A stretch of DNA of 64,000 nt from Flectonema sp. DT1601. Lineage: Eukaryota. The stretch covers positions 372,001-436,000 of the forward strand of contig OZ025805.1 in assembly GCA_964019425.1 (NCBI GenBank). Direction: 5' to 3'. Below the pieces are notes generated by a model. It was not told the origin of the DNA, did not search any database, and saw only the letters and a program-made list of their open reading frames with translations. Of this stretch, positions 15,835 to 57,160 are shown in pieces. The position numbers and the translations under genes were made by a program. Position 1 is the first letter of the stretch; every line of letters starts with the position of its first letter.

Positions 15835-17816
15835 TTGCTGTAAACAAATCACTATTCTAGACCTTTCTAGTCTCCATAGTGTCACCACAATTGGTCATGG
15901 TTTCTTGTATTCCTGTTCACAAATTACTTTTCTTGACCTTTCAGGTCTTACTAGTGTCACCGCTATTGGTGATCGCTTTATCAGTAAATGCGACTCTCTT
16001 GAATCTGTCCAGCTTCCTGAAAGTAATAGCGCTCTCTTTGAGGAGTCTGTGAAAGCAGCGATTGATCATTCAGGATAAAGTGTGAATTGATTCTTAAAAT
16101 TTTGTTTTTTTTAGTGATTTTTGTTTTATGGGAAAATAGTTTGCGAAATCGCCAACTCCCTACAAAAAAAAGTTGTCCACCAGGACTCGAACTTGACCCA
16201 AAATTTTGGCTTGCGGCGGGTTTTTTGTTTTTTAGCCTACCAAGCTGGGAAGAGTGCAAGGGGGGGCTTGCGTTATAGGTGGGAGGTTTACCAACAATGA
16301 AATACCACTACTCTTATCGTTGCTTATCCAATGATGGGGGAGCGGCAGCTGCCTCTTCGGAGGTTAGGGTCCTTTCGGACTCGTGGCTTTGACGATAAAA
16401 AACCCATTTTTATTCTCCTTTTTTTTCTTGTTTGAAAAATAAAACAACGAAATGTAATTTTTTTAATGCATACGAAATTTAGTCGCATGTATTTTAAGTC
16501 AGAGTTCGAACCTGGACATGTTTTAACAGGTCCGGCGCAGTTATGACCCTTAAACTGACTGTCATCTTGCCTGATCCCTTTGGTTTTCATTTCTTGCTGA
16601 GTGATATGGCTATGTGCTGCCCAAATCTTTTGTGGTACATTCCTAAAGCTTTTCGGTAAGCCCACAGTACAATTATAATGCTTTGGACAACTGGGGGTGA
16701 ACGATCCTCGGTACTGTTCCGGGGTTTTCTATCGTCTTTCGTGGAGTGTGGGCATATGGCACATGTGGTCGTATTATAAAGAAAGATGTATATGAAAGAA
16801 AGAAGTTTTTTTATTTTTTTCACCTTCCCCCCACTCCCGGATCATTTCTCTTTTATTTTCTTTAGTTGTTTACAACCTGTTAGCCTCTGGGCAAGGTGGA
16901 AGCTGGAAGTCGATCACTTCCAGCCAATACTATGAAACTACAATCTTCGCGATTGGGTCCTTACTGATGCGGGCTGCCCACCCCTCGTAGTCATCAGTTT
17001 GTATTTTGCTAACTAAACTAAACTAACTACAAGAGACCTGTTGTTAAGACATTCTCCCTCAAGCATCCACAGCACATGTTCAGAATTTGTCATCGCGAAG
17101 CGCTGACAAACATTATGAAGCGTTCTGGAAGCTAGCCATCTGTAAATATTGTAAAGGAGACGGAAAAAGATTTAAAAAAAAAAATATTATGAACTCGTAA
17201 ACCGGAACTAAAAATAAAAATAAAATAATATGTCACCACAAACACACTTGAACCATCTAAACAACGGGAACAGAACAAAACAAACCAAATCACATAATTA
17301 ACAAAAAAAAATGATAAAAAGTGCAAAAAAAAAAAAATGAAAAGAAAGTAATCAGCTTCAAACTAGTGCTAAAATTCCCAGCAACTTGCGTTGGGCGCCT
17401 CCACACCTTCGCTCATGTTGATACTATAAAGGTGTGTGTGCTGATGGCCTCAGTCTTCAAAAAAGATAAAATATGTTAGATCACCACATTGATTAAAAAA
17501 AAAATACTCAAAACTAACTGAGTCAAGACGTAGGGAGTGAGACACTAAGAAGTTCCTTCCTCAATGTTAGATTATTAAACAGAGCAAAGCAAACTAATAT
17601 CGAAAGCACAATCACATGACCTACAACAATAACGTTGTGTTCTTTTTTTTGATACGATTCAATAATTTATACTTCTCTTTCGAAATAGCATGATCGACAT
17701 GGGACGGATCTTTTTTTGCGTAATCAATAAAAGAATAACAATATAAGGGAAGTTGAACTGACAGTAATCTTTTTTGTGTGATACTGCTTTTTTGTATCAT
17801 TGTTATCTTCCATTAT

Positions 17817-24902: not shown

Positions 24903-25376
24903 TGTTTCGATTCCAACGAGAGGTACTGAAGTTATTAATTAAAAATAGAAAAAAAAAAAAAAAAAACGAGCTTCTGCTCGTTAACTATTAAAAATATAAA
25001 ATCCTAAAGATAGGCTGACTTACCCTCTTTCGGTTTACTTTTTTTTGTTTTATTGTGTGGTTGTTTTTTTTGCTACAACAAAAAATGAATTTCTTTGTTG
25101 TTTTTCCCCTACAGTTTTGCAAACAAAATGACCGACTTACTTCTACACCATACTGATGATGAGACGTTATATGGATTACTCTCGAAACCTAAATAGTATA
25201 AAGCATCACCATAGTTCACTGTGTTCCTTAACAGATTGTTAAATTATCATTTTATGTTAATATGATTCGATACAAACATTCATTCATTCAACTCCCCCAA
25301 CAGTTTTCACGAAATAAAAAAAAACCTTACACAAATTTTTTAAACAACCCAAAAAAAAAAAAAAAAAAACTTAACA

Positions 25377-34736: not shown

Positions 34737-36464
34737 CCCTCTAATAAGAGGCAAAAAACCCTGTTTTTGAGAAAAATCGAAAAATTTGACAAAGGAGAAA
34801 AGGGGTGTGGGGAAAAATACAAAAAAAATACAGGGTGAAAGACACCCCCCCGCGCATTGAAAAAAAACTGAGGTCAGCCCGCAAGGGGGCCAAAATAACT
34901 TGAGAAAATGCAACAACAGCCTAAAAAAACACTGTTGCTTAGGACCCCTGGGTTCGCTTTGATTTTGGCAATGTTGTAGGAGTAGAGTGCTTCCGTTTCA
35001 TGTTTTTCGGTGGGATATGATTGTGTGTAGCAAAGGTATGGTTGTTGCAAACAGGGGCTGAATACTTGTCAATATTTTCGTGATATTGTTCGAAGCAGGG
35101 ATCCATGCATAAGAAAACCTCGCTTTTTGAACAACAAATCGATGACCTTACTTTTTTTGAGAACAAATCCGTGAACTGCAGTCCCCAAAAATACCGAATT
35201 TTCGTAGGTAGTGACATTTTGTGTGAGTTTGGTGTGTTCCGTGAACAATAAGTTGAGAACATAGCCTCTTTTTGAACTGAGCATATGTCCCGACGTCTTT
35301 TTCAGACTTCTTTTGGAGGGTGAAAACATTGAAGATAGAAATCTCTAACAAGTAGTGAAAGACTTTCAGGGTCCAGCGTTTTGTCATCAGAGTTCTTCTT
35401 GCCTTCCCCCTGATACCGTCTACGAGGTCAACACCACCCATCAGTTTGTTGTACTGATGGATCTGTACCAGTAAGTCGATGGTCACTTTTTGATAGATTT
35501 CCTTATTTTAGTCCATCACGTGGCTGTCTCATAATTCTCCTCGAGAGGCAATGTGCTGAAGACATGTACTTCTTTTGGATTGTCCCTGAATTTATGTGAT
35601 GCACATTGTGCTAGGACTGAAAGTACGAGGCAGAGAACTTCTCCACCCGTCCCTGCGCCTCCGCCTTATTAATCTCTGACCATTTGGGAACTATTGTTTC
35701 CCAAAAGCTGCGGATTTTGTAGAGCTTGTCAGTAGGTACGGGGTTGGTGACAGTGTAAAACTTTAGATTGGTTCGAATTTAGAGGAACCGATCTCAGGAA
35801 GCAAAGTGGGGTGTGTACGCCGGGTCTGATGTACCGTTCCTGTAATCTTAGGGTAATCTGAGATATTTGGCTTATCACAGAGACCCACGAGGATATTGAG
35901 TCCTAAAGAGAGTTTGAGTTCAGCTACGTTAAGATTGAGTGCCTAGTTGTTGCTGCAGTGCGAAATCATCTCATCACCTTTGGGGTGAACACAAGTTCAA
36001 ATTTCTGCAGTTCCTTCATCAATTTCAGGTCTGACATGTCCTGCAAGGACCGCCGAAACGTGTGTCGTCTTACCTTGGTGATTTTCTTGCTCCATTTCAG
36101 AGGGGAAATGCTTGGCTCTATTGTACTCTTTTCATCGCTCGAAGAAGACTCAGGAGCACCCGAATCTGGGATAGGTGACCCTACTGAATCATTTTCGATG
36201 GAAATAGCTTTAGGGATTTTAATTTTTGGCTGAAAACATGGGATAGTCATGGGCAACCTGGCTAAGACTGTTCCCAGTGCAGAAAAAAAAAAATGAACTT
36301 TTTCTCAGAAAAAGCTGGTGATTTTTGCAGCACGATCCCACATAAAATTTGTCGTTTTTTGGCAGCTCTGGCTCCACCCTTGTACTCACAAGGTACATTT
36401 TTCCCCTTTGTCAAAAAAAAAAAAACGCGAAAGGCCACTATAGTGGCCTTCAGGGCTTAAAGGG
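34737..36464 (-). mobile_element. Degenerate piggyBac-like transposon, different family
   Basis: TTAA-CCCT...AGGG-TTAA; minus-strand YNKLMGGVDLVD...KRWTLKVFHYLLEISIFN, ELKLSLGLNILVG and FLCMDPCFEQYH, split by frameshifts. Confidence 0.88.
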
Positions 36465-36516: not shown

Positions 36517-37187
36517 GTCTGTGGTAGTGTTGAATTACAATACAAGTAATTGTATCTTCGGTGAAGGGTTGTGTGAACTTTCTTCTTTTCTTCTTCTTCT
36601 TTCTTCTTTTTTTTCCCTCCTTTTTTTTTCCAATAAATAAAAATAGCGATTATATCGTTGAGGGGGTATTGTTTGGTATAAAAAAACTTCGTTCCCCCCA
36701 TTTTTTTTGCATTGAAAAAATGCGTTTTGATTATGTTGTTTCTGTGCCTCTTATCATCCTCTTGAAGCAGGGCAGATGTTGTGTTTTCCCTCGTCTTTTA
36801 ACTAAATTGCTAAAATTATCTTTTTTTTATGTTTTTTATGATACAATACAGTTGTAATTATTACAAAAAAAAAAAAAAAATCGAACATTCAACCTCCCCG
36901 TTGTCTTCAAAGTTCCGAAAATGCATCTTATCTGTTTTGTATCGCTATGTTACGCGATACAAAACAGTTGTATTTTACAAATTCAAACATTCAATCCCCC
37001 CCTTGTCTTGGGATTTATTATAATGTAAAGTATTTACGTCAATCGCAGAGTGTATACCTACACTAACATTACCTTTAGTCACTGTATCTCAGAACTAATG
37101 TTAAATTATCGTTATGTTGTTTATGATACAAAACATTTGTATTTTACGTACAAACTCGAACAGTTAACCCCCCTTGTCTTGGGCTTA

Positions 37188-37441
37188 GTAACTACATCCC
37201 AGTCCTGCAAACTGGAATGACTCAGTCTCAACATTTGACTGACTTACTTCTACACCATACTGATGAGAGAGAATAGAGGTAAGAAGTATATGGATTACTC
37301 TCGAAACCTAAATAGTTACTTTATTATGCTAAGTTGCGCATCACCCTTAGTCACTGTATTTAAAACTAATGTTAAATTATCTTTATGTTGTTTATGATAC
37401 AACACAGTTGTAATTTTTACAAAATCGAACATACATCCCCT
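37188..37441 (+). repeat. Dispersed structured ~250-bp repeat (also about 45439-45690; degenerate at about 25134-25275)
   Basis: Near-identical copies; internal hairpins and CTGATGA/GAAA core; its 3' part recurs degenerately at about 36800-37180 and 38355-38420. Confidence 0.85.
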
Positions 37442-39552
37442 CCTTGTCTTCAAAGTTCCGCAAATGCAGCTTTGAATCGTAGCTGATTGTTTTATTTTAG
37501 TTAACTCTGGTACAATACAGATATTTTATATTTCTCTTAATAAAATATATTTTAAAGCACTTTCAAAATCCCCAAACCGCAAAACTAACAGCCAGAATAA
37601 ATAAATAAGATTCTCTTTGTTTTTTTCTTACGATCACCACCCCACTCCCCTACCCTTTATTTTATTATTATTTATTTATTTATTTTTGTTCACCGAGGAG
37701 GAGGAAAACAAAACAAACAAAGAAAAAAAAAAAAAAAAAAAAGAAAAAAGGAAGGAAAGCCTTTGATTTTTTGCGCAGCAAGAAAGCGCGTGAACGAACG
37801 ACTTAACTCTTCCCAACTCCCGGTAGTAATTGTTGAATGGCAGTTGCGAAAAAAGGAAAAAAAAAAAAAAGAAGAAGAAGAAGAAAAAAAAAAACAACAA
37901 CTGCAGCATTGTTTATTATTGTTGTATATTTTTTTTGGTGGTTTATTTTTTCTTTCCAACACACGGTTTGCATTTGGTGGCCCACATACGAACGAGACCC
38001 TCAACGCAGATAGCTGTTTTTTTCTTCTTCTTTTTTTATTTATTTATTCCCCTTGCCCCATGTGCTTCCAATTTTTCCCTACAAACAAATAGTGACATTG
38101 GAAGTTTTTGTGTTGTTATCTTTTGTTCAATTCTTTTTTCCTTGCGGGGAAAAAAAAAAAAAAGAACAAAAAATCTGATTGTTGCCTTGCCTTGTTTTTT
38201 CCTGCAACCGGCCTGCAAAACAGAAAGAACAAAAAAAAAAAAAAAAAAAAAAGAAAGAAAACAGAAATGTGTTGTCTACCTCCGATTCCCCTGGAGTTCA
38301 GTCAATCCTGAAATCCAGTGAAGGAAAAAAAAAAAAAAAAACAGAAAGTTAGCTAAATTATCGTTATGTTGTTTATGATACAATACATTTGTATTTTACG
38401 TACAAAATCGAACAGTTAACTCCCCTGGAGTTCAGTAAAACCTGAAAGCCAGTGAAGGGAAAAAAAATAAAAAAATAGAAAGTTAGCCAAATTAGAAGTA
38501 GAAATGAAGTTGCTATTTATTTGTTTATTTTTATTTTTATTATTATTTTTATTTTCTTGAAAAAAAAAAAAAAAAAAAAAAAAAAGCCATTTTTAAAAAG
38601 CTCTTGTTATCAATACAATTATCAAGAGAAATAATGGCTCTTCAGCTAAGTGACATGCTAGTCAAGTTTATTTTTTTTCCGCAAAAAAAAAAAAAAAAAA
38701 TTGTGTCCGAGCGGTTAGTTAGTAAAAATGATATTTACATACAGTCCTTAGTGATTTTTTTTTTTTTTTTTTATATTGCCTGTTTTTTTTCCCTCTTTAT
38801 TTTTTTTTTTCCCCCTTTTTTTTTCCTTCTATAACACCCAGCCTTTTACTCAATTCTTATTCCCAAATCTCTCTCGTACGGTAGTGTTAGCAAGAGTGGT
38901 TTTTTTTTATTTTTTTATATTATTTTTATTTTTTTGAAAAACTGTGTTTACTTTCACCTTATGTCTGATTGGTAGGTAAAGTGAAGAGTTTTTATTGTTT
39001 TTTTTCCTTTCCTTTTAATACTCTTCCTCCGCCTTGTTTAACATTACCACGCACACAACACACAACCCCCTCTCCACTTTTGTCCCTATTCCCACCCTGT
39101 CATCGTGAATTTATTGTTTTTTTTTTTTTGTCTGAAACAAAAAAAAAAAAAAAAAAAAAAAATTATATATCCCCACCCTCCATTCCTACACATGGCTGCC
39201 AGCTGTTTAAAAAACACCCTAAACTCAATATCCCTGTTGAAGCTAGTTTTTCTCGATCCTTTTTTTTTTTTCTTCTTTATTTTTTGTTGTTGTTCTTATT
39301 ACAATGTCATTTAATTGAAAAACAGGCAACAAACAAAAAAAATGATGATGGGAAAGGACAAGAGAAGATAGTTTCTTATGATTTTTGTAATGTAGTAAAA
39401 CTATCTCACCTCTATAACAGTAATTGACATCTCAAATAATGACTACTGACAGGGGTCAACCAGCTACCACAAACGTTAGCGTTTCTTTCTTCTTTCTTCT
39501 TAATATGTGTTATTTTTACCGTAACAAGGAAAAGGATAAATAAATAAATAAG

Positions 39553-41442: not shown

Positions 41443-41830
41443 TATCGGTTTTTTATATTATAATTAAGTTAGATATTTTTCTCCTAACCTCCTCTTCTTC
41501 CTCCTTCCTCATATTTCTTTTTTTTTAGATTTCGTTAGACTAATTGTGATATCATTCTGTCTTGTTCTATATTTATATTATTATTGTTATTGTTTGCGAC
41601 AGGAATCATCATCAAATTATGGGTGTTTTTCGGTTATTTATTTTTTTATTTTTTTTGTTTTTTTGCAAAAACAAAGTTTTTTAGGCAACCCAAATTATGA
41701 AAACTACAACAAAAATACCCCCCAAAAATAGGGATTGCGATCCAAAGAAACAGTTCTTAAGCACTTTAGAACAAGTCTTTGAAAAATCTCAAAAAGTGTG
41801 AACCAGTAACTGAGGGGGGGGGGGGGGTAG

Positions 41831-43799
41831 GGGGGGTACAAGCTGTCGATAAAGTACTTTTTCCGAATTTTGGTAAATATAACCTTCCCGGGGGCAAAAA
41901 TTACCCAGGACCCCATCAGAACCCCCAAAAATGTGATTTCGGGGCCGAAAAAACCTCGATTTGGCTGATTTCGGCAAGGGAATGAAATATCTCAAAAAGT
42001 GTGGACCGTGTGGTACCTGGGGGTCCAATTTTGAGGACTGTGAAATGCACCTTCAAATAATTTTTTTTTACAATGAGAAGAGGTGAGTCTTGGTGTGCCC
42101 CTGTATGCGCAGTTTGCTAATATACCATTTCCGTATCAGTTTCCACCTCAAGAACACGCCACGAAAAAGAACAGCGCTCTCGCTCGGCCATGCTTGAGGC
42201 CACGAGGCTCACGGGCAGGATAACGCAGCGGAAAACAACGTTCTGCAGGGCAGCTCACAAAGTCATTCTGCGGAGGAGAGCATTGATCCCAGAGTGCATG
42301 AAAACACCTCCCGAGGCATCTCTGAAGTTACTCAACAACACTTGGACAGTCAGAAGTAAGATACGCGTGAGAAAGGGGTCAAGAAACGTCCAGTATCTGA
42401 ATCGTGATCACAGAAGGCTCACAGAGTGGAGAAAGCGCCACGTCAGTACCCTAAACAGGGATAATCCTGAAGACAGCTGTAGTGGTAGTGCGTCAAATAG
42501 CAGTGCCATAGATAAGCAGCAGCGACATAGGGCAACATGCCCTATCCAAAAAGCCATTCAAGGCATCACTTAAGACCCAACCATACTCACCAGCGGGGCA
42601 TACAAGACACTCTAGTATATGCAGCATAAGGAGAAGTACGAAAGACACACCCGCTTGCAACTGTACCCAAACGAGGGGGATATACTCCTGGAGTCTTGGA
42701 GTCGTAACAACACTGCAGATATTGCGGCAAGAAGGGATCGGCGCAGAGACATCCAACTAAGTCCTGAGTGAGTGACATAGTTGAAGCTGTCGCAGGTGCG
42801 CAGATGGAAGAGAAGCGGGTCGAAGTCACTAATTATATCTTGAAGGACAGTCCGACTTGTTGATGGATTCACAGGTGATCTGTCGGTGACCTGACTTCTT
42901 GAAGCAGCAGCTTCCTCCTCACCCTCCGTCACATCGCTGCAGCATGATACTTCCTCTAGCGCCCGTCGTGCTCGTGGGATGAAGCTAACAACCGTGGCGT
43001 TCGTTGTCATCCTGCACCCCTCAAGGGATGGGGAGGTTATTCAGTGTTGTTGATAGTTCTTGGTCAACTGATGGAACCAGTGGCGTGAATGCTACTCTAC
43101 TGATAACGTACAACATATTCCAGAGGTACACGGACTTCCAAAGGCTACCACATCAACGCAGGACCACCGACCCTCTTCAGATTGGCAAGAACAAGCACAA
43201 CAGGAGGCGCTACAGGGGCTGAACGTACCACCCCGTCCTCACAGGGAAGACCTCTAGACAGCAAGGTCTAATACTAATCTGCCATCTGTATCCAAGGATT
43301 GGTCCTCTGTCTATCTTGTACAGAAAGAAGCACAGCTTCGGGCCGAATTTCGAAAGCTGAGCACATGGGATGTTCAAGAGAAGGCCAGTAGCCTAAACAT
43401 CGGACATGGGGGAATTAACAAGCCGGTCTGGTGGAGCATATTATTAAGGTTCAAATCAGGACGATAAAAATAAAAATTGGGTTCCCATTTCATTCCCCAC
43501 TCAACTCAGAGGGAAACCCTGGTTATGGATTGCTCAATGCACGGAATTACTTGTAATTTTTGTGAGCCCTCCTAACACACCCTTGTTTTCACCCCCCTCA
43601 GGTACCACACGGTCCACACTTTTTGAGATTTTTCAAAGACTTGCTCTAAAGTGCCGAAGAACTGTTTCTTTGGATCGCAATCCCCATTTTTGGGGTATAT
43701 GTTGCAGTTTTCATAATTTGGGTGCCCAAAAAACTTGTTCTCCGGAAAAAAACCGAAAGTGCCCAAAATCTCCGTAAAATCGATGCTTGTACCCCCCCC
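41831..43799. mobile_element. Non-autonomous TIR DNA transposon with G-run termini; further end fragments at about 41620-41810 and 45692-45827
   Basis: GGGGGGTACAAGCTGTCGAT ... ATCGATGCTTGTACCCCCCCC, flanked by TAG on both sides; subterminal inverted block ATCTCAAAAAGTGTGGACCGTGTGGTACCTG. Confidence 0.75.
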
Positions 43800-43803
43800 T
43801 AGG

Positions 43804-45333
43804 ACGACTGTACTTCAAAAGAAGACACAAGTCATTGCAAATGATGAACTCACACAGGTCCCGCCGATAATTCCAACAATGATACCAACACCAATTACAA
43901 ATTTATCACAATCGACACCGTCAATTGTACTTCAAAAGAATACACAAGTCAGTGCGAGTGATGCACTTACACAGGCCCCGCCGATAATTCCAACGCTGAT
44001 GCCAGCAAGGATTTCAAAAATATCACAATTAGCACCGCCGACTGTAATTCAGAAGAAGACACAAGTTATTGCAAATGAGGCACCTACAATGGCCCCACCT
44101 GCAATCCCAACGTTGATGCCAGCAACGATCTCAAAGGTATCACAATTGGAACCTCCGACTGTACATCAAAGTGTGATTCAATCTATGAAAACGATACAAT
44201 TACCGATTGTATCACCATTGGATCTGGATCATAATGATGTGGATATGATCGATATGCCGTCACCAGCAACAGTACAACTGGATACGGACACTGACATGGT
44301 AATGGAAACTATGTCACCAGAGACGCAGGAATCACCGGAGCATAGATATGCTGGCTTAATGACTCCATCCAAAGACAGGATGGAGTCACCACCAATAACT
44401 CCGATTAAGATTAAGACTCCACTGAAAATAAAGACGCCTCTGAAGATCGAAACTCCGACTAAAATAATTCCACAAACCCAACAAGCATGTTGGGATGGAA
44501 AGAACCTCGAATTAATACGAAGTTTGTCAAAAGAAAGACAGTTGGAGAAAATAGTCACCACATACAGACTAAGATCAACTACACCACAAACAGTAGCCAG
44601 GAAGATGGAAACACCACCTACTGTAAGCAGTAAAGCCACGAATTCCGGAACAACAATACCGATTACACCACAAAAGGTATCAAGAGTACTAACATACACA
44701 GATACAGAGAATATCGGTAAAACTTGCAAATATTGCAATAAATCCTGGAAGTCATTTATTGACCATATCAATAAATGTGGAATATTCAGAGCATCAAAAT
44801 AATATCCAACATATGTTGATGAAGATGATAACACTTCATTTACGGTCACTGAATACAAAACGGATCCTCGAAATAGTATTGTAACTGTTACAAAAGATGA
44901 GACAGAAACTCATATGTTATCTATCAAAAAGAATGGCAAGTTGGCAACACAAACGGTCGCTGATGAACCAGAGAGAAGCAGTAACAAGAGACTGAACTCA
45001 CAGAGTCCAATGCGAATTGTGAGAATCAAAAAATACCTGAGCAACCGGAAAAGGCTTAAAAATGAGTGTACTGAACATAAGTTGGCACAGAAAATGAAAC
45101 TTAAAGAAGTACAAAAACAGAAATTAGCAAAGGGAAAGGAAAAGAAGAAACTGAAATTGGTAAAAAGACTCAACTCGCAGAGTCCAATGAGACCGATGCT
45201 CAGAAGAAATACTCGAAAGAAAAGAAGCAAACAAGATGAACATGATTCTTCAGATGATATGAGTATTTCACAGAGATCTTCAACTCCAGATATCCCTGAT
45301 GCTAAGGAACAATTATCAGACTTTGATAATTAA
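43804..45333 (+). pseudogene. 5'-truncated T/P-rich repeat protein with C2HC finger and basic tail; one internal TAA (44800-44802)
   Basis: ORFs 43735-44802 and 44914-45333 share a frame and are separated by one stop; about 39-aa repeats; CKYCNKSWKSFIDHINKC. Confidence 0.6.
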
Positions 45334-45493
45334 AAACACTTTCTACAATTATTGTAGAAAAGTGCTCCACTAGTAGTGAGCTAAGAACTAGTAACAGCAA
45401 AAAATATGTTTTTTTTATTTATGAACATGAAACGCAAAGTAACTACATTCCAGTCCTGCAAACTGGAATGACTCAGTCTCAACATTTGACTGA

Positions 45494-45560
45494 CTTACTT
45501 CTACACCATACTGATGAGAGAGAATAGAGGTAAGAGGTATATGGATTACTCTCGAAACCT
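45494..45560 (+). ncRNA. Candidate permuted hammerhead ribozyme
   Basis: CCATA-CTGATGA-GAGAG ... AGG-TA-TATGG ... CTCTC-GAAA-CCT, plus a 10-bp extra helix. Confidence 0.6.
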
Positions 45561-46397
45561 ATAGTTACTTTAATATGCTAAGTTGCGCATCACCCTTAGT
45601 CACTGTATTTTAAAACTAATGTTAAATTATCTTTATGTTTTTATGATACAACACAGTTGTAATTTTTACAAAATCGAACATACATCCCCCCTAGGGGGTA
45701 CAAGCATCGATTTTACGGAGATTTTGGGCACTTTCGGTTTTTTTACGGAGAACAAGTTTTTTGTGCACCTAAATTATGAGAACTGCAACATATACCCCAA
45801 AAATGGGGATTGCGATCCAAAGAAACATGTGGCTCAGATAGCTCATAATTCATCATAAGTTGTGACTTCATATAAAGAAAGTGTTGTACAAGTGTTTTCA
45901 TTAAGTATCAAAGTAGCACACGTAAACCTTCTTTAACTTTATCAGTTTCGGTTCACGGGGTTTCGTGACACAAACAAAACATCACAGTTGTTATATTATT
46001 ATTTTCTGTATAGTTCAAGATAAAGCCAATTCTCTTTTAGTAAATATAAACCCATTGTTGTTTGGTAGAGCGTAATTAACCTATTCCTTTATTAAAGATT
46101 TTTTACTGGTTGCGCCAAAACAAAACTAAAATGAAGTGCAATTTGCCGATTCCTTTTTACCCAGGTAGTACTTTTACAAAGAATGTAGAACCGAATTGGT
46201 TAAACATTTCATTACAGGAATCTAACAACATGTCGCATTCTTCGTAGTATTCGATACCCAGACATGATTCAATGTAGGGATCGTATTTATATAATTGTTG
46301 CCGCCTGGCGTTTGGAACACAACATCCACACATTCTTTACACAGCAGCCATATATTAACACCCCACAGCAAATAGTAATTCAAAAAACTAACAAACA

Positions 46398-47393
46398 ATG
46401 CAAGTTTTTGTGACTTGTCCTGATTGGGGACTCCCCGCAGTGACAGTGACGGCTGGTGCTGATTCAGTTGTGAGCGACGTGTTGACGACGGCTGCTGGGG
46501 AGTGGGATGTGGATCCGGATGAAGTTGAACTCTCATTTGCTGGTGATACCCTTTGCGAGACTGATCGGCTGGCAGATCATGGAGTGGAATTTGAAATGTG
46601 GGAGAAGCAATTTAGGATATTCGGTAAAAGCTGGTTTGTTGATAATGCAAAACGGGAGCAGCTGCTTCTTTGGATGAGAGACCACATTACGGAGTATTTA
46701 TGTCTGGACACTCCGACATTCACAGAAGATGGTTGCCTCACTGTTGACGGTAAGCTGCTTCCTTCAGATGCCAAACAGGTTGCTTTCCGCAATTCAAATT
46801 CCAACAGTACAGCCATGTCATCAGTTACCACTATCGGAGATGAGTTCTTGTTTTGCTCACAAATCACTTCTCTTGACCTTTCTGGTTTTAGTAGTGTCAC
46901 TACTATTGGTGATGATTTCTTGTCTTTCTGTTCAGGAATCACTTCTCTTGACCTTTCCAGTCTAAATAGTGTCACAACTATTGGTTATCTATTCTTGTCT
47001 AACTGTAGGCGACTCACTTCTTTGAACTTCTCAGCTCCTAGTAATGTCACCACTATTGGCTGCTTTTTCATGTCTTCCTGTTCAGGAATCACTTCTCTTG
47101 ACCTTTCAGGTCTTAGTAGTGTCACCACTATTGGAAATAATTTCTTGACTTCCTGTTCGCGACTCACTTCTGTGAATTTTTCAGGTCGTAGTAGTGTCAC
47201 CACTATTGGTGATTGTTTCTTGCTTTCCTGTTCAAAAATCACTACTCTTGACCTTTCAAGTCTAAGTAGTGTAACGGGAATTGGATTGAACTTCCTCAGA
47301 AAATGCGACTCTCTTGAATCTGTCCAGCTTCCTGAAAGTAATAGCGCTCTCTTTGAGAAGTCTGTGAAAGCAGTGATTGATCATTCAGGATAA
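46398..47393 (+). CDS. Ubiquitin-like + BspA-type LRR protein, 331 aa
   Basis: Intact ORF with family N- and C-termini; small in-frame deletion in the Ubl domain. Confidence 0.9.
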   Translation: MQVFVTCPDWGLPAVTVTAGADSVVSDVLTTAAGEWDVDPDEVELSFAGDTLCETDRLADHGVEFEMWEKQFRIFGKSWFVDNAKREQLLLWMRDHITEYLCLDTPTFTEDGCLTVDGKLLPSDAKQVAFRNSNSNSTAMSSVTTIGDEFLFCSQITSLDLSGFSSVTTIGDDFLSFCSGITSLDLSSLNSVTTIGYLFLSNCRRLTSLNFSAPSNVTTIGCFFMSSCSGITSLDLSGLSSVTTIGNNFLTSCSRLTSVNFSGRSSVTTIGDCFLLSCSKITTLDLSSLSSVTGIGLNFLRKCDSLESVQLPESNSALFEKSVKAVIDHSG

Positions 47394-48534
47394 AGTGGTG
47401 AATTGATTTTTAAAGTTTTGTTTTTTGTTTAACTTTAATTTTTGTTTAACTCATTACCATCGTGTACCTTCTGACTAAAATATGAAAACTTCTTATCCCT
47501 TTGAGGGAATGTAATTACATGTCGCATCCTCGTAGTATTCGATACCCAGATGTCACTTGTATAAGTTCTTTCTAAAAGCAAGTTTAGCGTTTCGATGAAA
47601 TAATTCAAAAGAAGCAACGCAAGTTTTAGTGACGTGTCCTGATTGGGGACTCCCCGCAGCACTCGCTATGATGATGATGATATCACTTCATGTGGCTCAG
47701 ATAGCTCATAATTCATCATAAGTTGTGACTTCATATAAAGAAAGTGTTGTACAAGTGTTTTCATTAAGTATCAAAGTAGGTCCAAAAAGACTGGTAGTAA
47801 CAACCTGCCTCACCTGCACATGCTTAGTACTCTTTATTTTATTTTTACTCAATTTTCTGTTTTCTGGATCCCGCTGGGCCAGCAGTGTCCAATTAGACCC
47901 TTCGAATAATTATGTGATGCCAACCTCCCGAGTTCGAACGGAAATGAACCGAACGATGCGGCGCATTAAAATGCCTCTTCGATGGAAATTTTTACTATTT
48001 CTTTTAGGAAATATTTTTTGTTGTCTAGAATTTGGTCGAAAAAAATAATATTGACTTATGTTTTACTTTTTTTTTTGCATTTAACAAATATTTTAAGAAC
48101 GAAAAAGAATATTGAGGGTATCACACGTAAACCTCCTATTTTCTGTATAGATGAAGATAAAGCCAATTCTTTTTTTGTAAATATAAACCCATTGTTGTTT
48201 GGTAGAGCGTAACTAACCTATTCCTTTATTAAAGATTTTTTACTGGTAGCGCAAAAACAAAACAAAAATGAAGTGCAATTTGCCGATTTCTTTTTACCCA
48301 GGTAGTACTTTTACAAAGAATGTAGAACCGAATTGGTTAAACATTTCATTACAGGAATCTAACAACATGTCGCATTCTTCGTAGTATTCGATACCCAGAC
48401 ATGATTCAATGTAGGGATCGTATTTATATAATTGTTGCCGCCTGGCGTTTGGAACACAACATCCACACATTCTTTACACAGCAGCCATATATTAACACCC
48501 CACAGCAAATAGTAATTCAAAAAAGAAAGTAACA

Positions 48535-49389
48535 ATGCAAGTTTTTGTGACGTGTCCTGATTGGGGACTCCCCGCAGTGACAGTGACGGCTGGTGCTGAT
48601 TCAGTTGTGAGCGACGTGTTGACGGCGGCGGCTGGGGAGTGGGATGTGGATCCGGAGGAAGTTGAACTCTCGCTTGCTGGTGATACCCTTTGCGAAACTG
48701 ATCGGCTGGCAGATCATGGAGTGGTTGCAAACAGCGAGTTTGAAATGTGGACGAAGCAGTTTAGGATATTCGGTAAAAGCTGGTTTGTTGATGATGCAAA
48801 ACGGGAGAAGCTGCTTCTTTGGATGAGAGACCACATTACGGAGTATTTATGTCTGGACACTCCGACATTCACAGAAGATGGTTGCCTCACTGTTGAGCGT
48901 AAGTTGCTTCCTTCAGATGCCAAACAGGTTGCTTTCCGCAATTCAAATTCCAACAGCACAGCCATGTCATCAGTTACCACTATCGGAGATAAGTTCTTGT
49001 TTTGCTCACAAATCACTTCCGTTGACCTTTCTGGTTTTAGTAGTGTCACAGTTGTTGGTGACACATTCTTGTTTTGTTCAGGAATCACTTCTCTTGACCT
49101 TTCAGGTCTAAGCAGTGTTACTACTATTGGATACAATTTCATGTTTTCCTGTTCGCTACTCACTTCTCTTGACGTCTCAGGTCTTGGCAGGGTCGCCACT
49201 ATTGGAAATAACTTCTTGTCTTGCTGTTCCAAAATCACTTCTCTTGACCTTTCAAGTCTAAGTAGTGTCACGAGAATTGGATTGAACTTCCTCAGTGAAT
49301 GCAAAGCTCTTGAATCTGTCCAATTGCCTGAAAGTAATAGTGCTCTCTTTGAGAAGTCTGTGAAAGCAGCGATTGATCATTCAGGATAA
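48535..49389 (+). CDS. Ubiquitin-like + BspA-type LRR protein, 284 aa
   Basis: Intact ORF with family N- and C-termini. Confidence 0.9.
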   Translation: MQVFVTCPDWGLPAVTVTAGADSVVSDVLTAAAGEWDVDPEEVELSLAGDTLCETDRLADHGVVANSEFEMWTKQFRIFGKSWFVDDAKREKLLLWMRDHITEYLCLDTPTFTEDGCLTVERKLLPSDAKQVAFRNSNSNSTAMSSVTTIGDKFLFCSQITSVDLSGFSSVTVVGDTFLFCSGITSLDLSGLSSVTTIGYNFMFSCSLLTSLDVSGLGRVATIGNNFLSCCSKITSLDLSSLSSVTRIGLNFLSECKALESVQLPESNSALFEKSVKAAIDHSG

Positions 49390-51348
49390 AGTAGTGAATG
49401 GGTTCATTTGTCTTTAATAATTTAAAGAAGATTCTCTGATAGGAAGATTGATACCAACAATGTCATTCAACATGTCGATTCACGTGGAGTAGCTGTTGAA
49501 GACAATTAAAACAGAAAACACGACTTCTTGATGTGGTGACGGCCTGATCAATAACAACTAATACAAATCAATTTTTTCTTACAACTGGAACTGTGATGTA
49601 GTAATTGTTAGTGAGTGTTTTAACTACTTAGTAAGAGGGAAATAATAAAAGAATGTAGTTGTTGGAACCGACTCTACTAAATTACATTACCGACAATTAA
49701 CGTTTCGGTTGGGTTGTCGGAGCAAGAAAGAGAGAAGTATTTTGTCACATGCTTGGTAGTCTTTAATATGTTTATGCTCGATTTCCTTTTCTCTATTTTC
49801 TTGTTTTAGTACTTGCCTGTACTTACTGCTGAACTGATTCGGTGAACCACAAAATCTCTTTTTTCTCAATTCAGGTGACAAGTATGTGATGCCAACCTCA
49901 TTTAAATTAGTGAGAGCAACCAATCGAATCATATTACTGTAATCATAAATAACGTGGTGTGTAAAGAAAATTAGAATGGAACAATTTAAGAAATTAAAAA
50001 GGGGACGGTGGATTTATAAAAAAGTATTGAAGCACACATTTTGACTGTAAAATAGTAGTTTTTGAGAGACCATTGGGTACCTTCAGAAGGCAATAGTCCC
50101 ATACTTTATTATAAAATGCCAGGGAGCTGGGACTCCAATCGGATCACCCTGGCCTCGCAGTATATGACCAGTTTAGGGGACAGATAACTGAGGAAGTCCT
50201 AGACTAATCCTAACAGCCTTGGTACACAAGACCAACTTTAACCAGTTCAAATGTCGATAATTTAGTATCAGAAAATCAAAAACTTTATTTGCTAAAGTGT
50301 TTTCTGTGAATGTTTCTACTATTAAAAAACTGTGATTCTCTAAAAAGGCTCGTCACGTCTCATTTGGTCTATTGCAAAGGACGGTTACAAGGACTCGGCG
50401 TCACGCGGAAACTCGAAGAAAAATGCCGAGCAGTACAGAATAGACGCGGCAGCCTCCATAGAAGACACAAGTTTTGCGAAGGTGATGTGAGGATTACTGG
50501 CCGCCTAGCACACCTCGATATGATACATTCACTTCCAATACGAGTGAATGTATTAACAGTGTGTTCAAAGAAGCTCGTCAAACCTCGATTCTGGGGATTA
50601 TAAGATCGACATGAATGTGGATCGCTAATACTTTCGCAAAGCGACGGGGGATGTATTTTGGTGAAGAGGGAGTCGCACCGCTGCCAAATGTGAAAGATGT
50701 TATTGAGTTGTCAGTAGCACTCATGGCTCAATGTACCGTGAAATAGATTAGAACAGGGAAGCTGTGAAACACATTTGTGAATTACTTTTGTACACATTCT
50801 TTACACAGCAGCCATATATTAACACCCCACAGCAAATAGTAATTCAAAAAACTAACAAACAATGCAAGTTTCCGTGACGTGTCCTGATTGGGGACTCCCC
50901 GCAGTGACAGTGACGGCTGGTGCTGATTCAGTTGTGAACGACGTGTTGACGGCGGCGGCTGGGGAGTGGGATGTGGATCCGGATGAAGTTGAACTCTCGT
51001 TTGCTGGTTGTACCCTTTGCGAAACTGATCGGCTGGCAGATCATGGAGTGGTTGCGGACAGCGAGTTGGAAATGTGGACGAAGCAGTTTAGGATATTCGG
51101 TAAAAGCTGGTTTGTTGATGATGCAAAACGGGAGAAGCTGCTTCTTTGGATGAGAGACCACATTACGGAGTATTTATGTCTGGACACTCTCACATTCACA
51201 GAAGATGGTTGCCTCACTGTTGAGCGTAAGTTGCTTCCTTCAGATGCCAAACAGGTTGCTTTCCGCAATTCAAATTCCAACAACACAGCCATGTCATCAG
51301 TTACCACTATCGGAGATGAGTTCTTGTCTTCCTGTTACCACATCACTG

Positions 51349-52047
51349 GGGTAACGAAACTCGGATAGCGCGCCTCCTCGTGGTGTTACCTGGATGCACC
51401 TTGTGTGTAACTAGAGTGCTGACGTATTGTTGTTGTTGCTGTGTATTCTTTTACCCCCGTTTTATTTTCCGGTAGCCTAACCTTTAAAAAAAAAAAAGGA
51501 CAACATAGCAGAAGGTCAGGTGATCCGGCCCGGGATACTCAGGCACCCAGAGCTCACAGGGGCCACCGGGTTTTTATTTTTTCCTTAGTGGCATGATTTC
51601 CCTTTACCCCCATTTCCTTCAAACTTCCCCCGTTTAGTCTTTTCACGCATGGGGGGATTATAAGTTCAGGTCGCCTGAAATGTATTAACAGTATCAGCCC
51701 CGCGAGTTACTCGGGGAGCTCCCATGCAATGTGTGGAGAAAGAGGCCATCCCTCCCCCTACCTCTCTGCTTTACTACGTCGTTTTTTGTGTGTGGCATTT
51801 CTTTTCTTATATTCTTTTCTTTTCAATCTTGTTCCTTCACACGCAGTTGTTCGAGCGGTTGTGAACCACCTTGGGTCTCTTACGGTCTCCAAGCTACTGT
51901 TGTGCGAAGAAACAAATCTGTTGGTGCGGTGGCCTTCCGACGCCACCTGGACCGCAACTCGTTCACAGTGCCCTACCCGGTTCTCCACCGGACCGCCTGA
52001 GCGACGGGATCCATGGGATTCAAACCCCTAAACACTGGTTAATTTTT
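51349..52047 (+). mobile_element. Short retroelement, copy B
   Basis: TSD TTCCTGTTACCACATCACTG at 51329-51348 and 52048-52067. Confidence 0.95.
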
Positions 52048-52361
52048 TTCCTGTTACCACATCACTGCGCTTGACCTTTCAAGTCTTCATAGTGTCACAA
52101 CTATTAGATACGAATTCTTGTATATCTCACGACTCACCTCTGTTGACCCTTCTAGTCTTCGTAGTGTAACATCCATTGGTTATAGTTTCTTGTCCTATTC
52201 CGAAATCACTTCTCTTGACCTTTCAGGTCTAAGTAGTGTCACAAGTATTGGTGATTATTTCGTGTCTCGTTATTCCCACATCACTGCGCTTGACTTTTCA
52301 GGTCTTATTAGTGTCACCACTATTGGAAAGAGTTTCTTGAGTTACTGTTTAGGAATCACTT

Positions 52362-53053
52362 GGGTAACGAAACTCGGACAGCGCGCCTCCTCGTGGTGTT
52401 GCCTGGATGCACCTTGTGTGTAACTAGAGTGCTGACGTATTGTTGTTGCTGTGTATTCTTTTACCCCCGTTTTATTTTCCGGTAGCCTAACCTTTAAAAA
52501 AAAAGGACAACATAGCAGAAGGTCAGGTGATCCGGCCCGGGATACTCAGGCACCCAGAGCTCACAGGGGCCACCGGGTTTTTATTTTTTCCTTAGTGGCA
52601 TGATTTCCCTTTACCCCCATTTCCTTCAAACTTCCCCCGTTTAGTCTTTTCACGCATGGGGGGATTATAAGTTCAGGTCGCCTGAAATGTATTAACAGTA
52701 TCAGCCCCGCGAGTTACTCGGGGAGCTCCCATGCAATGTGTGGAGAAAGAGGCCATCCCTCCCCCTACCTCTCTGCTTTACTACGTCGTTTTTTTGTGTG
52801 TGGCATTTCTTTTCTTATATTCTTTTCTTTTCAATCTTGTTCCTTCACACGCAGTTGTTCGAGCGGTTGTGAACCACCTTGGGTCTCTTACGGTCTCCAA
52901 GCTACTGTTGTGCGAAGAAACAAATCTGTTGGTGCGGTGGCCTTCCGACGCCACCTGGACCGCAACTCGTTCACAGTGCCCTACCCGGTTCTCCACCGGA
53001 CCGCCTGAGCGACGGGATCCATGGGATTCAAACCCCTAAACACTGGTTAATTT
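52362..53053 (+). mobile_element. Short retroelement, copy C
   Basis: TSD TTACTGTTTAGGAATCACTT at 52342-52361 and 53054-53073. Confidence 0.95.
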
Positions 53054-53148
53054 TTACTGTTTAGGAATCACTTCTGTGAACTTCTCAGGTCTTAGTAATG
53101 TCACCACTTTTGACTACCGGTTCATGTATTCCTGTTCAGGAATCACTA

Positions 53149-53854
53149 GGGTAACGAAACTCGGATAGCGCGCCTCCTCGTGGTGTTGCCAGGATGCACC
53201 TTGTGTGTAACTAGAGTGCTGACGTATTGTTGTTGTTGCTGTGTATTCTTTTACCCCCGTTTTATTTTCCGGTAGCCTAACCTTTAAAAAAAAAAAAGGA
53301 CAACATAGCAGAAGGTCAGGTGATCCGGCCCGGGATACTCAGGCACCCAGAGCTCACAGGGGCCACCGGGTTTTTATTTTTTCCTTAGTGGCATGATTTC
53401 CCTTTACCCCCATTTCCTTCAAACTTCCCCCGTTTAGTCTTTTCACGCATGGGGGGATTATAAGTTCAGGTCGCCTGAAATGTATTAACAGTATCAGCCC
53501 CGCGAGTTACTCGGGGAGCTCCCATGCAATGTGTGGAGAAAGAGGCCATCCCTCCCCCTACCTCTCTGCTTTACTACGTCGTTTTTTTGTGTGTGGCATT
53601 TCTTTTCTTATATTCTTTTCTTTTCAATCTTGTTCCTTCACACGCAGTAGTTCGAGCGGTTGTGAACCACCTTGGGTCTCTTACGGTCTCCAAGCTACTG
53701 TTGTGCGAAGAAACAAATCTGTTGGTGCGGTGGCCTTCCGACGCCACCTGGACCGCAACTCGTTCACAGTGCCCTACCCGGTTCTCCACCGGACCGCCTG
53801 AGCGACGGGATCCATGGGATTCAAACCCCTAAACACTGGTTAATTTTTTTTTTT
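53149..53854 (+). mobile_element. Short retroelement, copy D (flanks do not match)
   Basis: Left flank TTCCTGTTCAGGAATCACTA, right flank TTCCTGTTTGCGTGTCACTT; both in target register. Confidence 0.93.
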
Positions 53855-54024
53855 TTCCTGTTTGCGTGTCACTTCTCTTTACCTTTCAGGTCTTAGCAGC
53901 ATCACCACTATTGGGAGTGGTTTCTTGTCTTCCTGTTCGCGACTCACTTCTGTGAACTTCTCAGCTCTTAGTAATGTCACCACTATTGGCTGCCGTTTCA
54001 TGTCTTCCTGTTCAGGAATTACTA

Positions 54025-54717
54025 GGGTAACGAAACTCGGACAGCGCGCCTCCTCGTGGTGTTGCCTGGATGCACCTTGTGTGTAACTAGAGTGCTGACG
54101 TATTGTTGTTGTTGCTGTGTATTCTTTTACCCCCGTTTTATTTTCCGGTAGCCTAACCTTTAAAAAAAAAGGACAACATAGCAGAAGGTCAGGTGATCCG
54201 GCCCGGGATACTCAGGCACCCAGAGCTCTCAGGGGCCACCGGGTTTTTATTTTTTCCTTAGTGGCATGATTTCCCTTTACCCCCATTTCCTTCAAACTTC
54301 CCCCGTTTAGTCTTTTCACGCATGGGGGGATTATAAGTTCAGGTCGCCTGAAATGTATTGACAGTATCAGCCCCGCGAGTTACTCGGGGAGCTCCCATGC
54401 AATGTGTGGAGAAAGAGGCCATCCCTCCCCCTACCTCTCTGCTTTACTACGTCGTTTTTTGTGTGTGGCATTTCTTTTCTTATATTCTTTTCTTTTCAAT
54501 CTTGTTCCTTCACACGCAGTTGTTCGAGCGGTTGTGAACCACCTTGGGTCTCTTACGGTCTCCAAGCTACTGTTGTGCGAAGAAACAAATCTGTTGGTGC
54601 GGTGGCCTTCCGACGCCACCTGGACCGCAACTCGTTCACAGTGCCCTACCCGGTTCTCCACCGGACCGCCTGAGCGACGGGATCCATGGGATTCAAACCC
54701 CTAAACACTGGTTAATT
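54025..54717 (+). mobile_element. Short retroelement, copy E
   Basis: TSD TTCCTGTTCAGGAATTACTA at 54005-54024 and 54718-54737. Confidence 0.95.
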
Positions 54718-55779
54718 TTCCTGTTCAGGAATTACTACTCTTGACCTTTCTAGTCTCCATAGTGTCACCACAATTGATCAAGAGTATTGATCAGATCTAA
54801 GTAGTGTCACCAGTATTGGTGATGACTTTCTCGATGAATGTGACTCTCTTGAATCTGTCCAGCTTCCTGAAAGTAATAGCGCTCTCTTTGAGAAGTCTGT
54901 GAAAGCAGCGATTGATCATTCAGGATAAAGTGGTGAATTGATTCTTAAAGTTTTGTTTTTTGTAATTTTTGTTTAACTCATTACCATCGTGTACTTCTGA
55001 CTAAAATATGAAAACTTCTTATCCCTTTGAGGGAATGTAATTACATGTCCCATCCTCGTAGTATTCGATACCCAGATGTCACTTGTATAAGTTCTTTCTA
55101 ACAGCAAGTTTAGCGTTTCGATGAAATAATTCAAAAGAAGCAACGCAAGTTTTAGTGACGTGTCCTGATTGGGGACTCCCCGCAGCACTCGCTATGATGA
55201 TGATGATATCACTTCATGTGGCTCAGATAGCTCATAATTCATCATAAGTTGTGACTTCATATAAAGAAAGTGTTGTACAAGTGTTTTCATTAAGTATCAA
55301 AGTTGCACACGTAAACCTTCTTTAACTTTATCAGTTTCAGTTCACAGTTACGTGACGAACAAAACATCACAGTTGTTATATTATTATTTTCTGTATAGTT
55401 CAAGATAAAGCCAATTCTCTTTTAGTAAATATAAACCCATTGTTTGGTAGAGCGTGACTAAGCTATTCCTTTATTAAAGATTTTTTACTGGTTGCGCCAA
55501 AACAAAACTAAAATGAAGTGCAATTTGCCGATTCCTTTTTACCCAGGTAGTACTTTTACAAAGAATGTAGAACCGAATTGGTTAAACATTTCATTACAGG
55601 AATCTAACAACATGTCACATTCTTCGTAGTATTCGATACCCAGACATGATTCAATGTAGGGATCGTATTTATATAATTGTTGCCGCCTGGCGTTTGGAAC
55701 ACAACATCCACACATTCTTTACACAGCAGCCATATATTAACACTCCACAGCATATAGTAATTCAAAAAAGAAAGTAACA

Positions 55780-56937
55780 ATGCAAGTTTTTGTGACGTGT
55801 CCTGATTGGGGACTCCCCGCAGTGACAGTGACGGCTGGTGCTGATTCAGTTGTGAGCGACGTGTTGACGGCGGCGGCTGGGGAGTGGGATGTGGATCCGG
55901 ATGAAGTTGAACTCTCGCTTGCTGGTGATAACCTTTGCGAAACTGATCGGCTGGCAGATCATGGAGTGGTTGCAAACAGCGAGTTTGAAATGTGGATGAA
56001 GCAGTTTAGGATATTCGGTAAAAGCTGGTTTGTTGATGATGCAAAACGGGAAAAGCTGCTTCTTTGGATGAGAGACCACATTACGGAGTATTTATGTCTG
56101 GACACTCCGACATTCACAGAAGATGGTTGCCTCACTGTTGACCGTGACCTGCTTCCTTCAGATGCCAAACAGGTTGCTTTCCGCAATTCAAATTCCAACA
56201 GCACAGCCATGTCATCAGTTACCACTATCGGAGATAAGTTCTTGTTTTGCTCACAAATCACTTCTCTTGACCTTTCTGGTTTTAGTAGTGTCACTACTAT
56301 TGGAGATGATTTCTTATCTTTGTGTTCCCAAATCACTTCTGTAAACCTTTCAGGTCTTCGTAGTGTCACCACTATTGGATATCTATTCTTATATTATTGT
56401 TTAAGGATCACTTGTCTTAACCTTTCGGGACTTAGTAATGTGACCACTATTGGTAATTCTTTCTTGCTTTGCTGTTCCCAAATCTCTTCTCTTGACCTTT
56501 CTAGTTTTAGTAGTGTCACCACTATTGGAAATGGTTTCTTATGTGTGTGTTCACAAATCACTTCTGTAAACCTTTCAGGTCTTAGTAGTGTCACCGCTAT
56601 TGGAGATAATTTCTTATGTTATTGTTCAAGGATCACTTCTCTTAACCTTTCAAGTCTTAGTAGTGTCACCACTATTGGTGATTGTTTCTGTCGTCGTTGT
56701 GCAGGAATCACTTCTCTTGACCTTTCGGGTCTTAGTAGTGTCACCGCAATAGACAGTAAATTCTTGTCCTCCTGTTCACAAATCACTTCTCTTGACCTTT
56801 CAGATCTAAGTAGTGTCACCACGATTAGTGATTGCTTTCTCGATGAATGCGACTCTCTGGAATCTGTCCAGCTTCCTGAAAGTAATAGCGCTCTCTTTGA
56901 GAAGTCTGTGAAAGCAGCGATTGATCATTCAGGATAA
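55780..56937 (+). CDS. Ubiquitin-like + BspA-type LRR protein, 385 aa
   Basis: Intact ORF with family N- and C-termini. Confidence 0.9.
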   Translation: MQVFVTCPDWGLPAVTVTAGADSVVSDVLTAAAGEWDVDPDEVELSLAGDNLCETDRLADHGVVANSEFEMWMKQFRIFGKSWFVDDAKREKLLLWMRDHITEYLCLDTPTFTEDGCLTVDRDLLPSDAKQVAFRNSNSNSTAMSSVTTIGDKFLFCSQITSLDLSGFSSVTTIGDDFLSLCSQITSVNLSGLRSVTTIGYLFLYYCLRITCLNLSGLSNVTTIGNSFLLCCSQISSLDLSSFSSVTTIGNGFLCVCSQITSVNLSGLSSVTAIGDNFLCYCSRITSLNLSSLSSVTTIGDCFCRRCAGITSLDLSGLSSVTAIDSKFLSSCSQITSLDLSDLSSVTTISDCFLDECDSLESVQLPESNSALFEKSVKAAIDHSG

Positions 56938-57160
56938 AGTGGGGAATTGATTCTTAAAATTTTGTATTTTGTTTAACTTTAATTTTTGTTTAACTCATTA
57001 CCATCGTGTACCTTCTGACTAAAATATGAAAACTTCTTATCCCTTTGAGGGAATGTAATTACATGTCGCATCCTCGTAGTATTCGATACCCAGATGTCAC
57101 TTGTACAAGTTCTTTCTAACAGAACCTTTCCCACCTCACAGCAAATTATTTAAAATAAAC

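Follow-up and report, generated by a model that had tools for sequence, protein, structure and literature searches.

A candidate hammerhead ribozyme with its conserved blocks in the order C-S-G lies at positions 45494-45560 (+) of the window, i.e. the whole stretch of 64,000 nucleotides analysed here. We are highly confident that the motif is a selected CSG fold and expect, with good confidence, that it would cleave in vitro; its carrier is probably an element of Penelope type. The reading that we favour, and hold as a whole with reasonable confidence, is that of a type-CSG hammerhead in the 3′ untranslated tail of a dispersed 5′-truncated element, likely Penelope-like (of the Naiad/Chlamys kind) or a dependent derivative, in a likely diplonemid host.

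The hammerhead has been split into three blocks, C, G and S, and its six orders have been named by Eckert et al. 2023 (PMC10085705). In the passages of that paper considered here type CSG comprises two similar soil-metagenome sequences of unknown origin, CSG-1 and CSG-2, which cleave at 0.004 and 0.026 per min, and single-motif constructs of both cleaved during transcription; the evidence for biological relevance was rated weaker for type CSG than for type SGC (PMC10085705). A search on "type-CSG" in literature mostly outside the subscription journals returned Eckert et al. 2023 alone. The parts of the window motif and of the RNA around it are as follows.

45494..45560 (+): type-CSG hammerhead candidate, intact copy A, with four helices, based on sequence, descriptor and shuffles
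45494..45503 (+): 5′ strand of the extra helix, by which stems I and II are linked, partner 45525-45534
45506..45522 (+): block C (stem I 5′ strand, CUGAUGA, stem II 5′ strand), within the extra-helix loop
45535..45544 (+): block S (stem III 5′ strand, U16.1-A17 site, stem I 3′ strand)
45549..45560 (+): block G (stem II 3′ strand, GAAA, stem III 3′ strand)
45438..45569 (+): predicted enclosing RNA domain, with outer stem 45438-45445/45562-45569 and hairpins 45446-45470 and 45473-45493

Stem I is formed by CCATA (45506-45510) and TATGG (45540-45544), stem II by GAGAG (45518-45522) and CTCTC (45549-45553) and stem III by AGGT (45535-45538) and ACCT (45557-45560); all three adjoin the core and are fully Watson-Crick paired (5/5, 5/5 and 4/4 pairs, respectively). 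The core strand CTGATGA occupies 45511-45517, G10.1-C11.1 is the first pair of stem II, and stem III includes A15.1-U16.1 and C15.2-G16.2. Every element required of a hammerhead core is thus present (CUGAnGA, GAAA, an NUH site, G10.1-C11.1 and A15.1-U16.1), the cleavage site triplet being GUA with the cut predicted after A45539. Stem I (-3.2 kcal/mol) and stem III (-2.5 kcal/mol) are weak, short and A-U rich, and the extra helix comprises 10 pairs, one of them G-U, with a duplex energy of -10.4 kcal/mol and pair probabilities of 0.92-1.00. The strands, the three stems and the 10-bp helix had been proposed in an initial annotation of this DNA and were recovered at these coordinates, beyond chance in shuffles. 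Its claim of a non-circular strand order also held, the six-order descriptor giving C-S-G, which matches the published type-CSG definition, and so did its suggestion of a pseudoknot: each of stems I, II and III crosses the other two, and stems I and II are also crossed by the extra helix. The two halves of the core lie 36 nt apart. In nested folding the extra helix and stem III appear as two adjacent hairpins whose loops contain the strands of stems I and II. While the pairing is seen in the sequence, we infer by analogy with CSG-1 and CSG-2 that the three-dimensional fold would be a monomeric double loop-loop pseudoknot, in which the two hairpin loops would pair twice, as stems I and II, and give an ordinary core in one molecule.

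The descriptor covered all six block orders at stringencies of 4/4/3 and 5/5/3 (stem pairs), and 45494-45560 was the sole window site at both; with stem III relaxed, copy B (below) was also retrieved. In 150 shuffles of the window no match of any order was obtained at 5/5/3, and 5 matches, 1 of them CSG, at 4/4/3 with G-U pairs allowed. Among 16,876 shuffles of the 36-46 kb region (337.5 Mb, both strands) there were 15 loose CSG matches and none with stems of at least 5/5/3 and an extra helix of at least 8 bp, a criterion chosen after the site was seen. We therefore consider it extremely improbable that the motif arose from random pairing within an A/T-rich repeat and is cargo of a DNA transposon whose terminal inverted repeats measure 134 bp. 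Copy A does lie between inverted repeats (43663-43796 and 45694-45827), and the nested folding energy of the bare 76-nt motif is ordinary (z = -0.26); nested folding, however, cannot score pseudoknots, and the transposon was rejected because the other 6 copies of the element have no such inverted repeat.

The expectation of the initial annotation that standard descriptors would miss the motif was borne out for Rfam, which gave no hammerhead at gathering score across the whole window, none at E<=10 in 45250-45850, and five chance matches below gathering score. Nor does the motif fall under types I-III, its order being none of CGS, GSC or SCG and its stems crossing instead of nesting. Pattern scans for relatives returned at least 120, 2 and 0 loci among viral contigs, 30 among metagenome contigs and 33 among genome contigs; no CSG arrangement with stems of 4/4/2 was present among the matches listed (185 loci). 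These scan negatives are weak, as the metagenome pattern should by eye match CSG-1, yet CSG-1 was not returned, and as that pattern was unable to match the nematode stems described below. At looser settings a Chthoniobacterales bin (L161) gave a weak CSG match of 3/5/3, and two loci of one Kordiimonas bin (L167 and L178) gave GCS matches of 3/3/4 with relaxed stems, all probably due to chance. Three further loci (L002, L116 and L165) are ordinary hammerheads, two of them in viral contigs with the type II order and one in a Thermoflexus bin with the type III order.

Two other window copies of the element carry ribozyme sequence, and their damage had been correctly described in the initial annotation. 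The ribozyme of copy B (37243-37309) differs from that of copy A by a single base, which breaks the middle pair of stem III. The remnant at 25 kb (25148-25190) has lost about 12 nt, among them the extra-helix 3′ strand and the stem III 5′ strand, has one additional T directly after CTGATGA, and is predicted to be inactive. An intact ribozyme is thus found in one of the three ribozyme-bearing copies, and this damage, together with the stop in the copy A ORF, the short A-U-rich stems I and III and the often poor cleavage in vitro of Penelope hammerheads (PMC4209133), could suggest a remnant that has decayed or is not catalytic, its fold retained as a structural signal or for protein binding, or its activity lost in this genome. 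We regard such a remnant as highly improbable, since all core bases are perfect in copies A and B and in a contig of public run X1, which differs at 25 places elsewhere.

Placed beside CSG-1 and CSG-2, as far as these are described in the passages considered, the window motif shares the C-S-G order, the full core and a fourth helix, in which the stretch 5′ of stem I pairs with the linker that follows stem II; it is 67 nt long versus 66 nt there, with a fourth helix of 10 bp, its stem I and stem II 3′ strands are separated by 4-5 nt of A/U-rich linker, as there, and it was likewise found in DNA. In contrast, the stem sequences are unrelated, the triplet is GUA and not GUC, stems I and III are one pair shorter and the fourth helix measures 10 instead of 8 bp. 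The window motif, known from sequence alone, is surrounded by a larger predicted multi-branch domain and belongs to a multi-copy element in an assembled eukaryotic genome, whereas CSG-1 and CSG-2 come from short soil contigs with unknown host. Since it is unrelated to them outside the core, 45494-45560 is a new, independent candidate member of a published, very rare type, its novelty lying in the setting. The initial annotation had set the order apart from types I-III; it is not a new architecture, the order with its fourth helix having already been published as type CSG, and both published examples cleave (PMC10085705).

The same annotation had also suggested that the motif might act as a dimer, for which nothing in the window calls. 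In a hammerhead working only as a dimer or in trans, the block-C loop would pair with the S/G hairpin loop of a second RNA. Linkers of 0-4 nt could make it difficult to thread three stems that all cross each other, there are copies in tandem, and minimal Penelope hammerheads needed dimers (PMC4209133). On the other hand, the cleavage of CSG-1 and CSG-2 as single motifs, described with no concentration series in the passages considered (PMC10085705), the window linkers, which lie within the range of CSG-1, CSG-2 and seven nematode Naiads (0-16 nt before stem III and 2-5 nt before stem II), and the tandem neighbours of copy B, which have no ribozyme part, make such a requirement very unlikely.

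The 133 nt at 45438-45570 fold with z = -3.84 (0/200 shuffles equally stable), and the outer domain lifts the pair probability of stem III from 0.64-0.68 to 0.92-0.97. Its conservation was followed in three public runs, X1-X3, as assembled contigs only, so that presence of a contig in an RNA run does not show transcription; X2 and X3 have small word shares and may stem from the same or a close organism. The X1 contig (367 nt) covers 45274-45639, from the ORF end through the ribozyme, and differs there by 20 substitutions and 5 gaps. Places are listed for 16 of the substitutions; none of these falls in 45494-45560 (p = 0.017) and one, which keeps a G-U pair, in 45438-45570 (p = 0.001), both tests being post hoc and on one contig. 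A loose end of X1 (30 letters), aligned by eye to the first hairpin, has two compensatory double changes (45449-45467 and 45451-45465) and two lost pairs; one pair of that hairpin is also broken in copy B. In the X2 contig three of the listed changes fall in a hairpin loop and one more preserves a G-U pair; four unlisted changes are near the contig ends. Domain variants in the other runs are by eye mostly in loops, G-U-keeping or compensatory. Both the X2 contig and the 25 kb copy carry an extra U between A9 and G10.1, after CUGAUGA. Among the three window copies no significant covariation was found and the structure test was not above shuffles (166/500), in an alignment in which the stem II rows were misaligned for the 25 kb copy; across CSG-1, CSG-2 and the seven Naiads the stem sequences differ yet pair, as read by eye. 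Two further short hairpins (45340-45381) lie in the 3′ UTR just past the ORF stop, upstream of the ribozyme domain.

The ribozyme is situated about 130 nt from the 3′ end of an element represented in the window by the following copies and associated features.

43804..45692 (+): likely extent of 5′-truncated element copy A, with ORF remnant, 3′ UTR containing the ribozyme and a tail of about 130 nt to a C-run
43804..45333 (+): ORF remnant of no known family, with one in-frame stop at 44800-44802
45694..45827 (no strand assigned): the upstream flank 43663-43796 copied in inverse orientation (134 bp, 97%), directly next to the copy A 3′ end
37187..37443 (+): copy B, 97% identical to 45438-45689, ribozyme at 37243-37309
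36810..37183 (+): three shorter 3′-end copies (about 36810-36899, 36930-37001 and 37067-37174), head to tail with copy B
38350..38426 (+): 3′-end-only copy with a 74-bp direct duplication, 38287-38360/38421-38494 (91%)
25100..25298 (+): diverged copy containing the ribozyme remnant 25148-25190

The initial annotation had placed the motif on a small mobile repeat. A mobile repeat it is, but not a small one, the carrier being the 3′ end of a longer 5′-truncated element with an ORF. All seven copies of this 3′ end are on the + strand, have ragged 5′ ends and end at runs of at least 4 C, a run that may partly be element sequence (CCCC starts at 210 of the 64,000 window positions). The four tandem copies at 36.8-37.4 kb are each followed by a C-run and a similar target word, and three of the four units are missing the ribozyme. 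Head-to-tail joints were also seen in the X2 contig, where the last 117 nt of the element are followed by a 14-nt spacer and a restart, and in the X3 contig, where 3′-part sequence is joined to position 45351. Copy A is flanked by a 10-bp direct repeat (43794-43803/45686-45695), its left boundary being inferred; flank duplications across copies measure 10, about 16 and 74 bp and resemble flanking sequence more than part of the element. The 5′ ends lie near 45438, 45572, 45588, 45616, 45623 and 45645, and no copy starts at the predicted cut site, which does not support insertions starting there.

The ORF remnant contains 117-bp repeats, a Cys/His motif and a Lys-rich end, with no Pfam family at E<0.01 and all Atlas matches below 0.9. 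Its relatives are short and occur on many long contigs; most have the same C-terminus but a different N-terminus and continue across the stop position. The shared C-terminus and varied starts are as expected for dispersed 5′-truncated copies. No longer or reverse transcriptase-fused relative was found in databases (a weak negative). Upstream of the 37067 copy the sequence 37010-37066 differs from copy A and recurs in loose ends of X1, X2 and X3; it likely represents a second subfamily sharing only the last 100 nt, and no hammerhead core was found in its visible part. Another repeat family, which has G-run/C-run ends, forms nested inverted repeats at 41657-42023 and 43592-43800; copy A sits at its C-run end and is followed by the 134-bp inverted copy of this end.

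These properties resemble those of Penelope-like elements. In the parts of Craig et al. 2021 and its supplement considered here, Naiad and Chlamys elements are 5′-truncated, partly tandem and biased towards simple repeats, (C)n in Chlamys and (TA)n in Naiads, and have no canonical hammerheads, 18 records being flagged with a core or "half core"; the (C)n-targeting Chlamys are not among the 18 flagged rows (PMC8557442). The window copies show the same 5′ truncation and partial tandems, flank or tail duplications and non-autonomous derivatives, the bias to C-runs (7/7 copies) as in Chlamys, and, in the 3′ UTR, a hammerhead core whose halves are widely separated (36 nt, versus 35-50 nt for the "half core"). 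Where a terminal tail of 30-40 bp is a mark of Penelope-like elements, the window copies have the three flank duplications listed above and the X2 contig a 14-nt spacer. Naiad/Chlamys elements are marked by a telomerase-like reverse transcriptase with N-terminal GIY-YIG and a CxC motif; for the window element no GIY-YIG, CxC or reverse transcriptase domain of its own was found among the ORFs scanned, all copies seen being 5′-truncated. Its UTR is preceded by an ORF of no known family, and Naiads prefer (TA)n.

A parallel to the ribozyme was met in the Naiads themselves. Parsed by eye, the 3′ ends of 7/7 nematode Naiad consensus sequences in parts 13-15 of the 59 supplement parts of PMC8557442 form a CSG hammerhead with a fourth helix, each with different stem sequences; these parts were chosen after a motif search had shown candidates (4/21 passages), and 7/7 is not a rate for all Naiads. 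The seven are an unnamed record before Naiad_Parc, Naiad_Parc, Naiad-1_Nbra, Naiad-2_Nbra, Naiad-3_Nbra, the record before Naiad_Hpol, which we take as Naiad_Hcon, and Naiad_Hpol. Stem I reads GTCGTA/TACGAC in Parc, AACTCA/TGAGTT in Hcon, GCTTA/TAAGC in 2_Nbra and TCTTA/TAAGA in 3_Nbra; by eye the fourth helices are of 9-16 bp and the motifs lie downstream of the reverse transcriptase ORF. The architecture and position are thus common to the window element and these Naiads and the sequence is not; convergence is possible. Other Naiad tails (supplement of PMC8557442 near parts 10-12 and 24) have GAAA before CUGAUGA and paired stems in a different scrambled order. No diplonemid or euglenid entry occurs in the parts of this supplement considered, and no paper linking CSG to Naiads and no natural hammerhead or Penelope element from diplonemids were found in literature mostly outside the subscription journals; "Penelope" has 0 occurrences in the D. 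papillatum genome paper.

The type I hammerheads, canonical and minimal, that Penelope pseudo-LTRs and non-LTR retrozymes carry (PMC4209133; bioRxiv 10.64898/2026.07.22.740005, as far as described in the parts considered) likewise belong to a tandem-forming retroelement terminal repeat, and those of Penelope share the occasional extra base between positions 9 and 10.1 (PMC4209133). In contrast to the window element they have the circular C-G-S order and frequently need dimers, and not every tandem unit of the window element carries a ribozyme. A non-LTR retrozyme, made of non-coding tandem units each with a type I hammerhead, was rejected on the CSG order, the three of four units without ribozyme and the ORF upstream in copy A.

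The sole reverse transcriptase among 98 window ORFs scanned (22 + 76, the remainder of the 125 listed lying in LRR arrays or already-scanned genes) belongs to a LINE at 5450-10078, and no Penelope reverse transcriptase or GIY-YIG domain was found in these ORFs. A linked Penelope-like reverse transcriptase, for which the initial annotation had advised looking, was thus found neither in the scanned window ORFs nor fused to the element ORF in databases, the latter a weak negative. The LINE (+) has an intact-looking ORF of 1542 aa with APE endonuclease and reverse transcriptase, and before it lies a Gln-rich ORF whose start resembles that of the local LRR genes. The LINE protein cluster has 22 members, and the named sequences nearest to it come from Flectonema neradi (70-74% identity) and Diplonema papillatum (43%); on these relatives of one mobile gene a diplonemid host is likely.

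A real CSG hammerhead might accordingly ride on a SINE- or retrozyme-like element that is moved by a host LINE such as this one, is unrelated to Penelope-like elements and uses the ribozyme to free its RNA from a polycistronic transcript. The LINE reverse transcriptase and its cluster would fit this, as would the position of 7/7 copies on the host-gene strand (four separate loci, weak) and the 5′ truncation, compatible with any target-primed retroposon; HDV-like ribozymes in trypanosome LINEs offer an analogy. We nevertheless judge it unlikely. The 3′ 360 nt of the element have no similarity to the LINE region (best E = 0.37) and none of the 7 ends has a poly(A) or simple-repeat tail, on which a SINE mobilised by the window LINE was rejected; the partial tandems, the long duplications of flank and the targeting of C-runs are in keeping with Penelope-like elements, and the nematode Naiads parsed by eye end in the same ribozyme fold (PMC8557442, parts considered).

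The window long ORFs with a Pfam match are all on one strand, which fits the co-transcribed gene clusters described for D. papillatum in the part of that paper considered (PMC10161547). They are accompanied by tandem gene arrays at 10100-16100 and 46400-57000 with 25-residue (75-bp) BspA-type leucine-rich repeats and many near-identical intergenic segments, a short remnant at 35151-35507 (-) of a decayed DNA transposase (Pfam DDE_Tnp_1_7, E = 9e-6), and inverted arms from a 20-bp tandem repeat at 12187-12317 and 13901-14022, about 1.6 kb apart, possibly DNA transposon ends.

Under the Penelope-like reading the element would be transcribed with the same-strand gene cluster of the host or from head-to-tail copies. 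The outer stem and the two additional hairpins may stabilise the short stem III, and the ribozyme would cut long read-through or tandem RNA into element-sized pieces; cutting of long precursors has been proposed for Penelope hammerheads, in which an extra base between positions 9 and 10.1 is also reported (PMC4209133). The template was likely uncut or re-joined, possibly circular, RNA, because genomic copies end about 150 nt beyond the cut site, which is intact in two of them. A reverse transcriptase from elsewhere would prime at C-runs and often stop early. One Penelope element has been shown to initiate reverse transcription internally (PMC11167929), which on an uncut or re-joined template would allow a fixed 3′ end. 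More tentatively, and with more doubt than confidence, CSG may be the working ribozyme of a deep Penelope-like branch: nematode Naiads and the diplonemid family would both end in it, CSG-1 and CSG-2 would derive from such elements, and cutting and re-joining would make the template for tandem, C-run-primed insertions.

Type CSG has so far consisted of two similar sequences of unknown origin. A multi-copy genomic example together with seven divergent Naiads would supply covariation and give the type a biological home, and the window setting suggests where it lives. Naiad and Chlamys elements have been reported to spread without canonical hammerheads (PMC8557442); on our reading by eye the nematode tails analysed appear to carry a permuted one, which would make these published jumping genes the bearers of a CSG fold.
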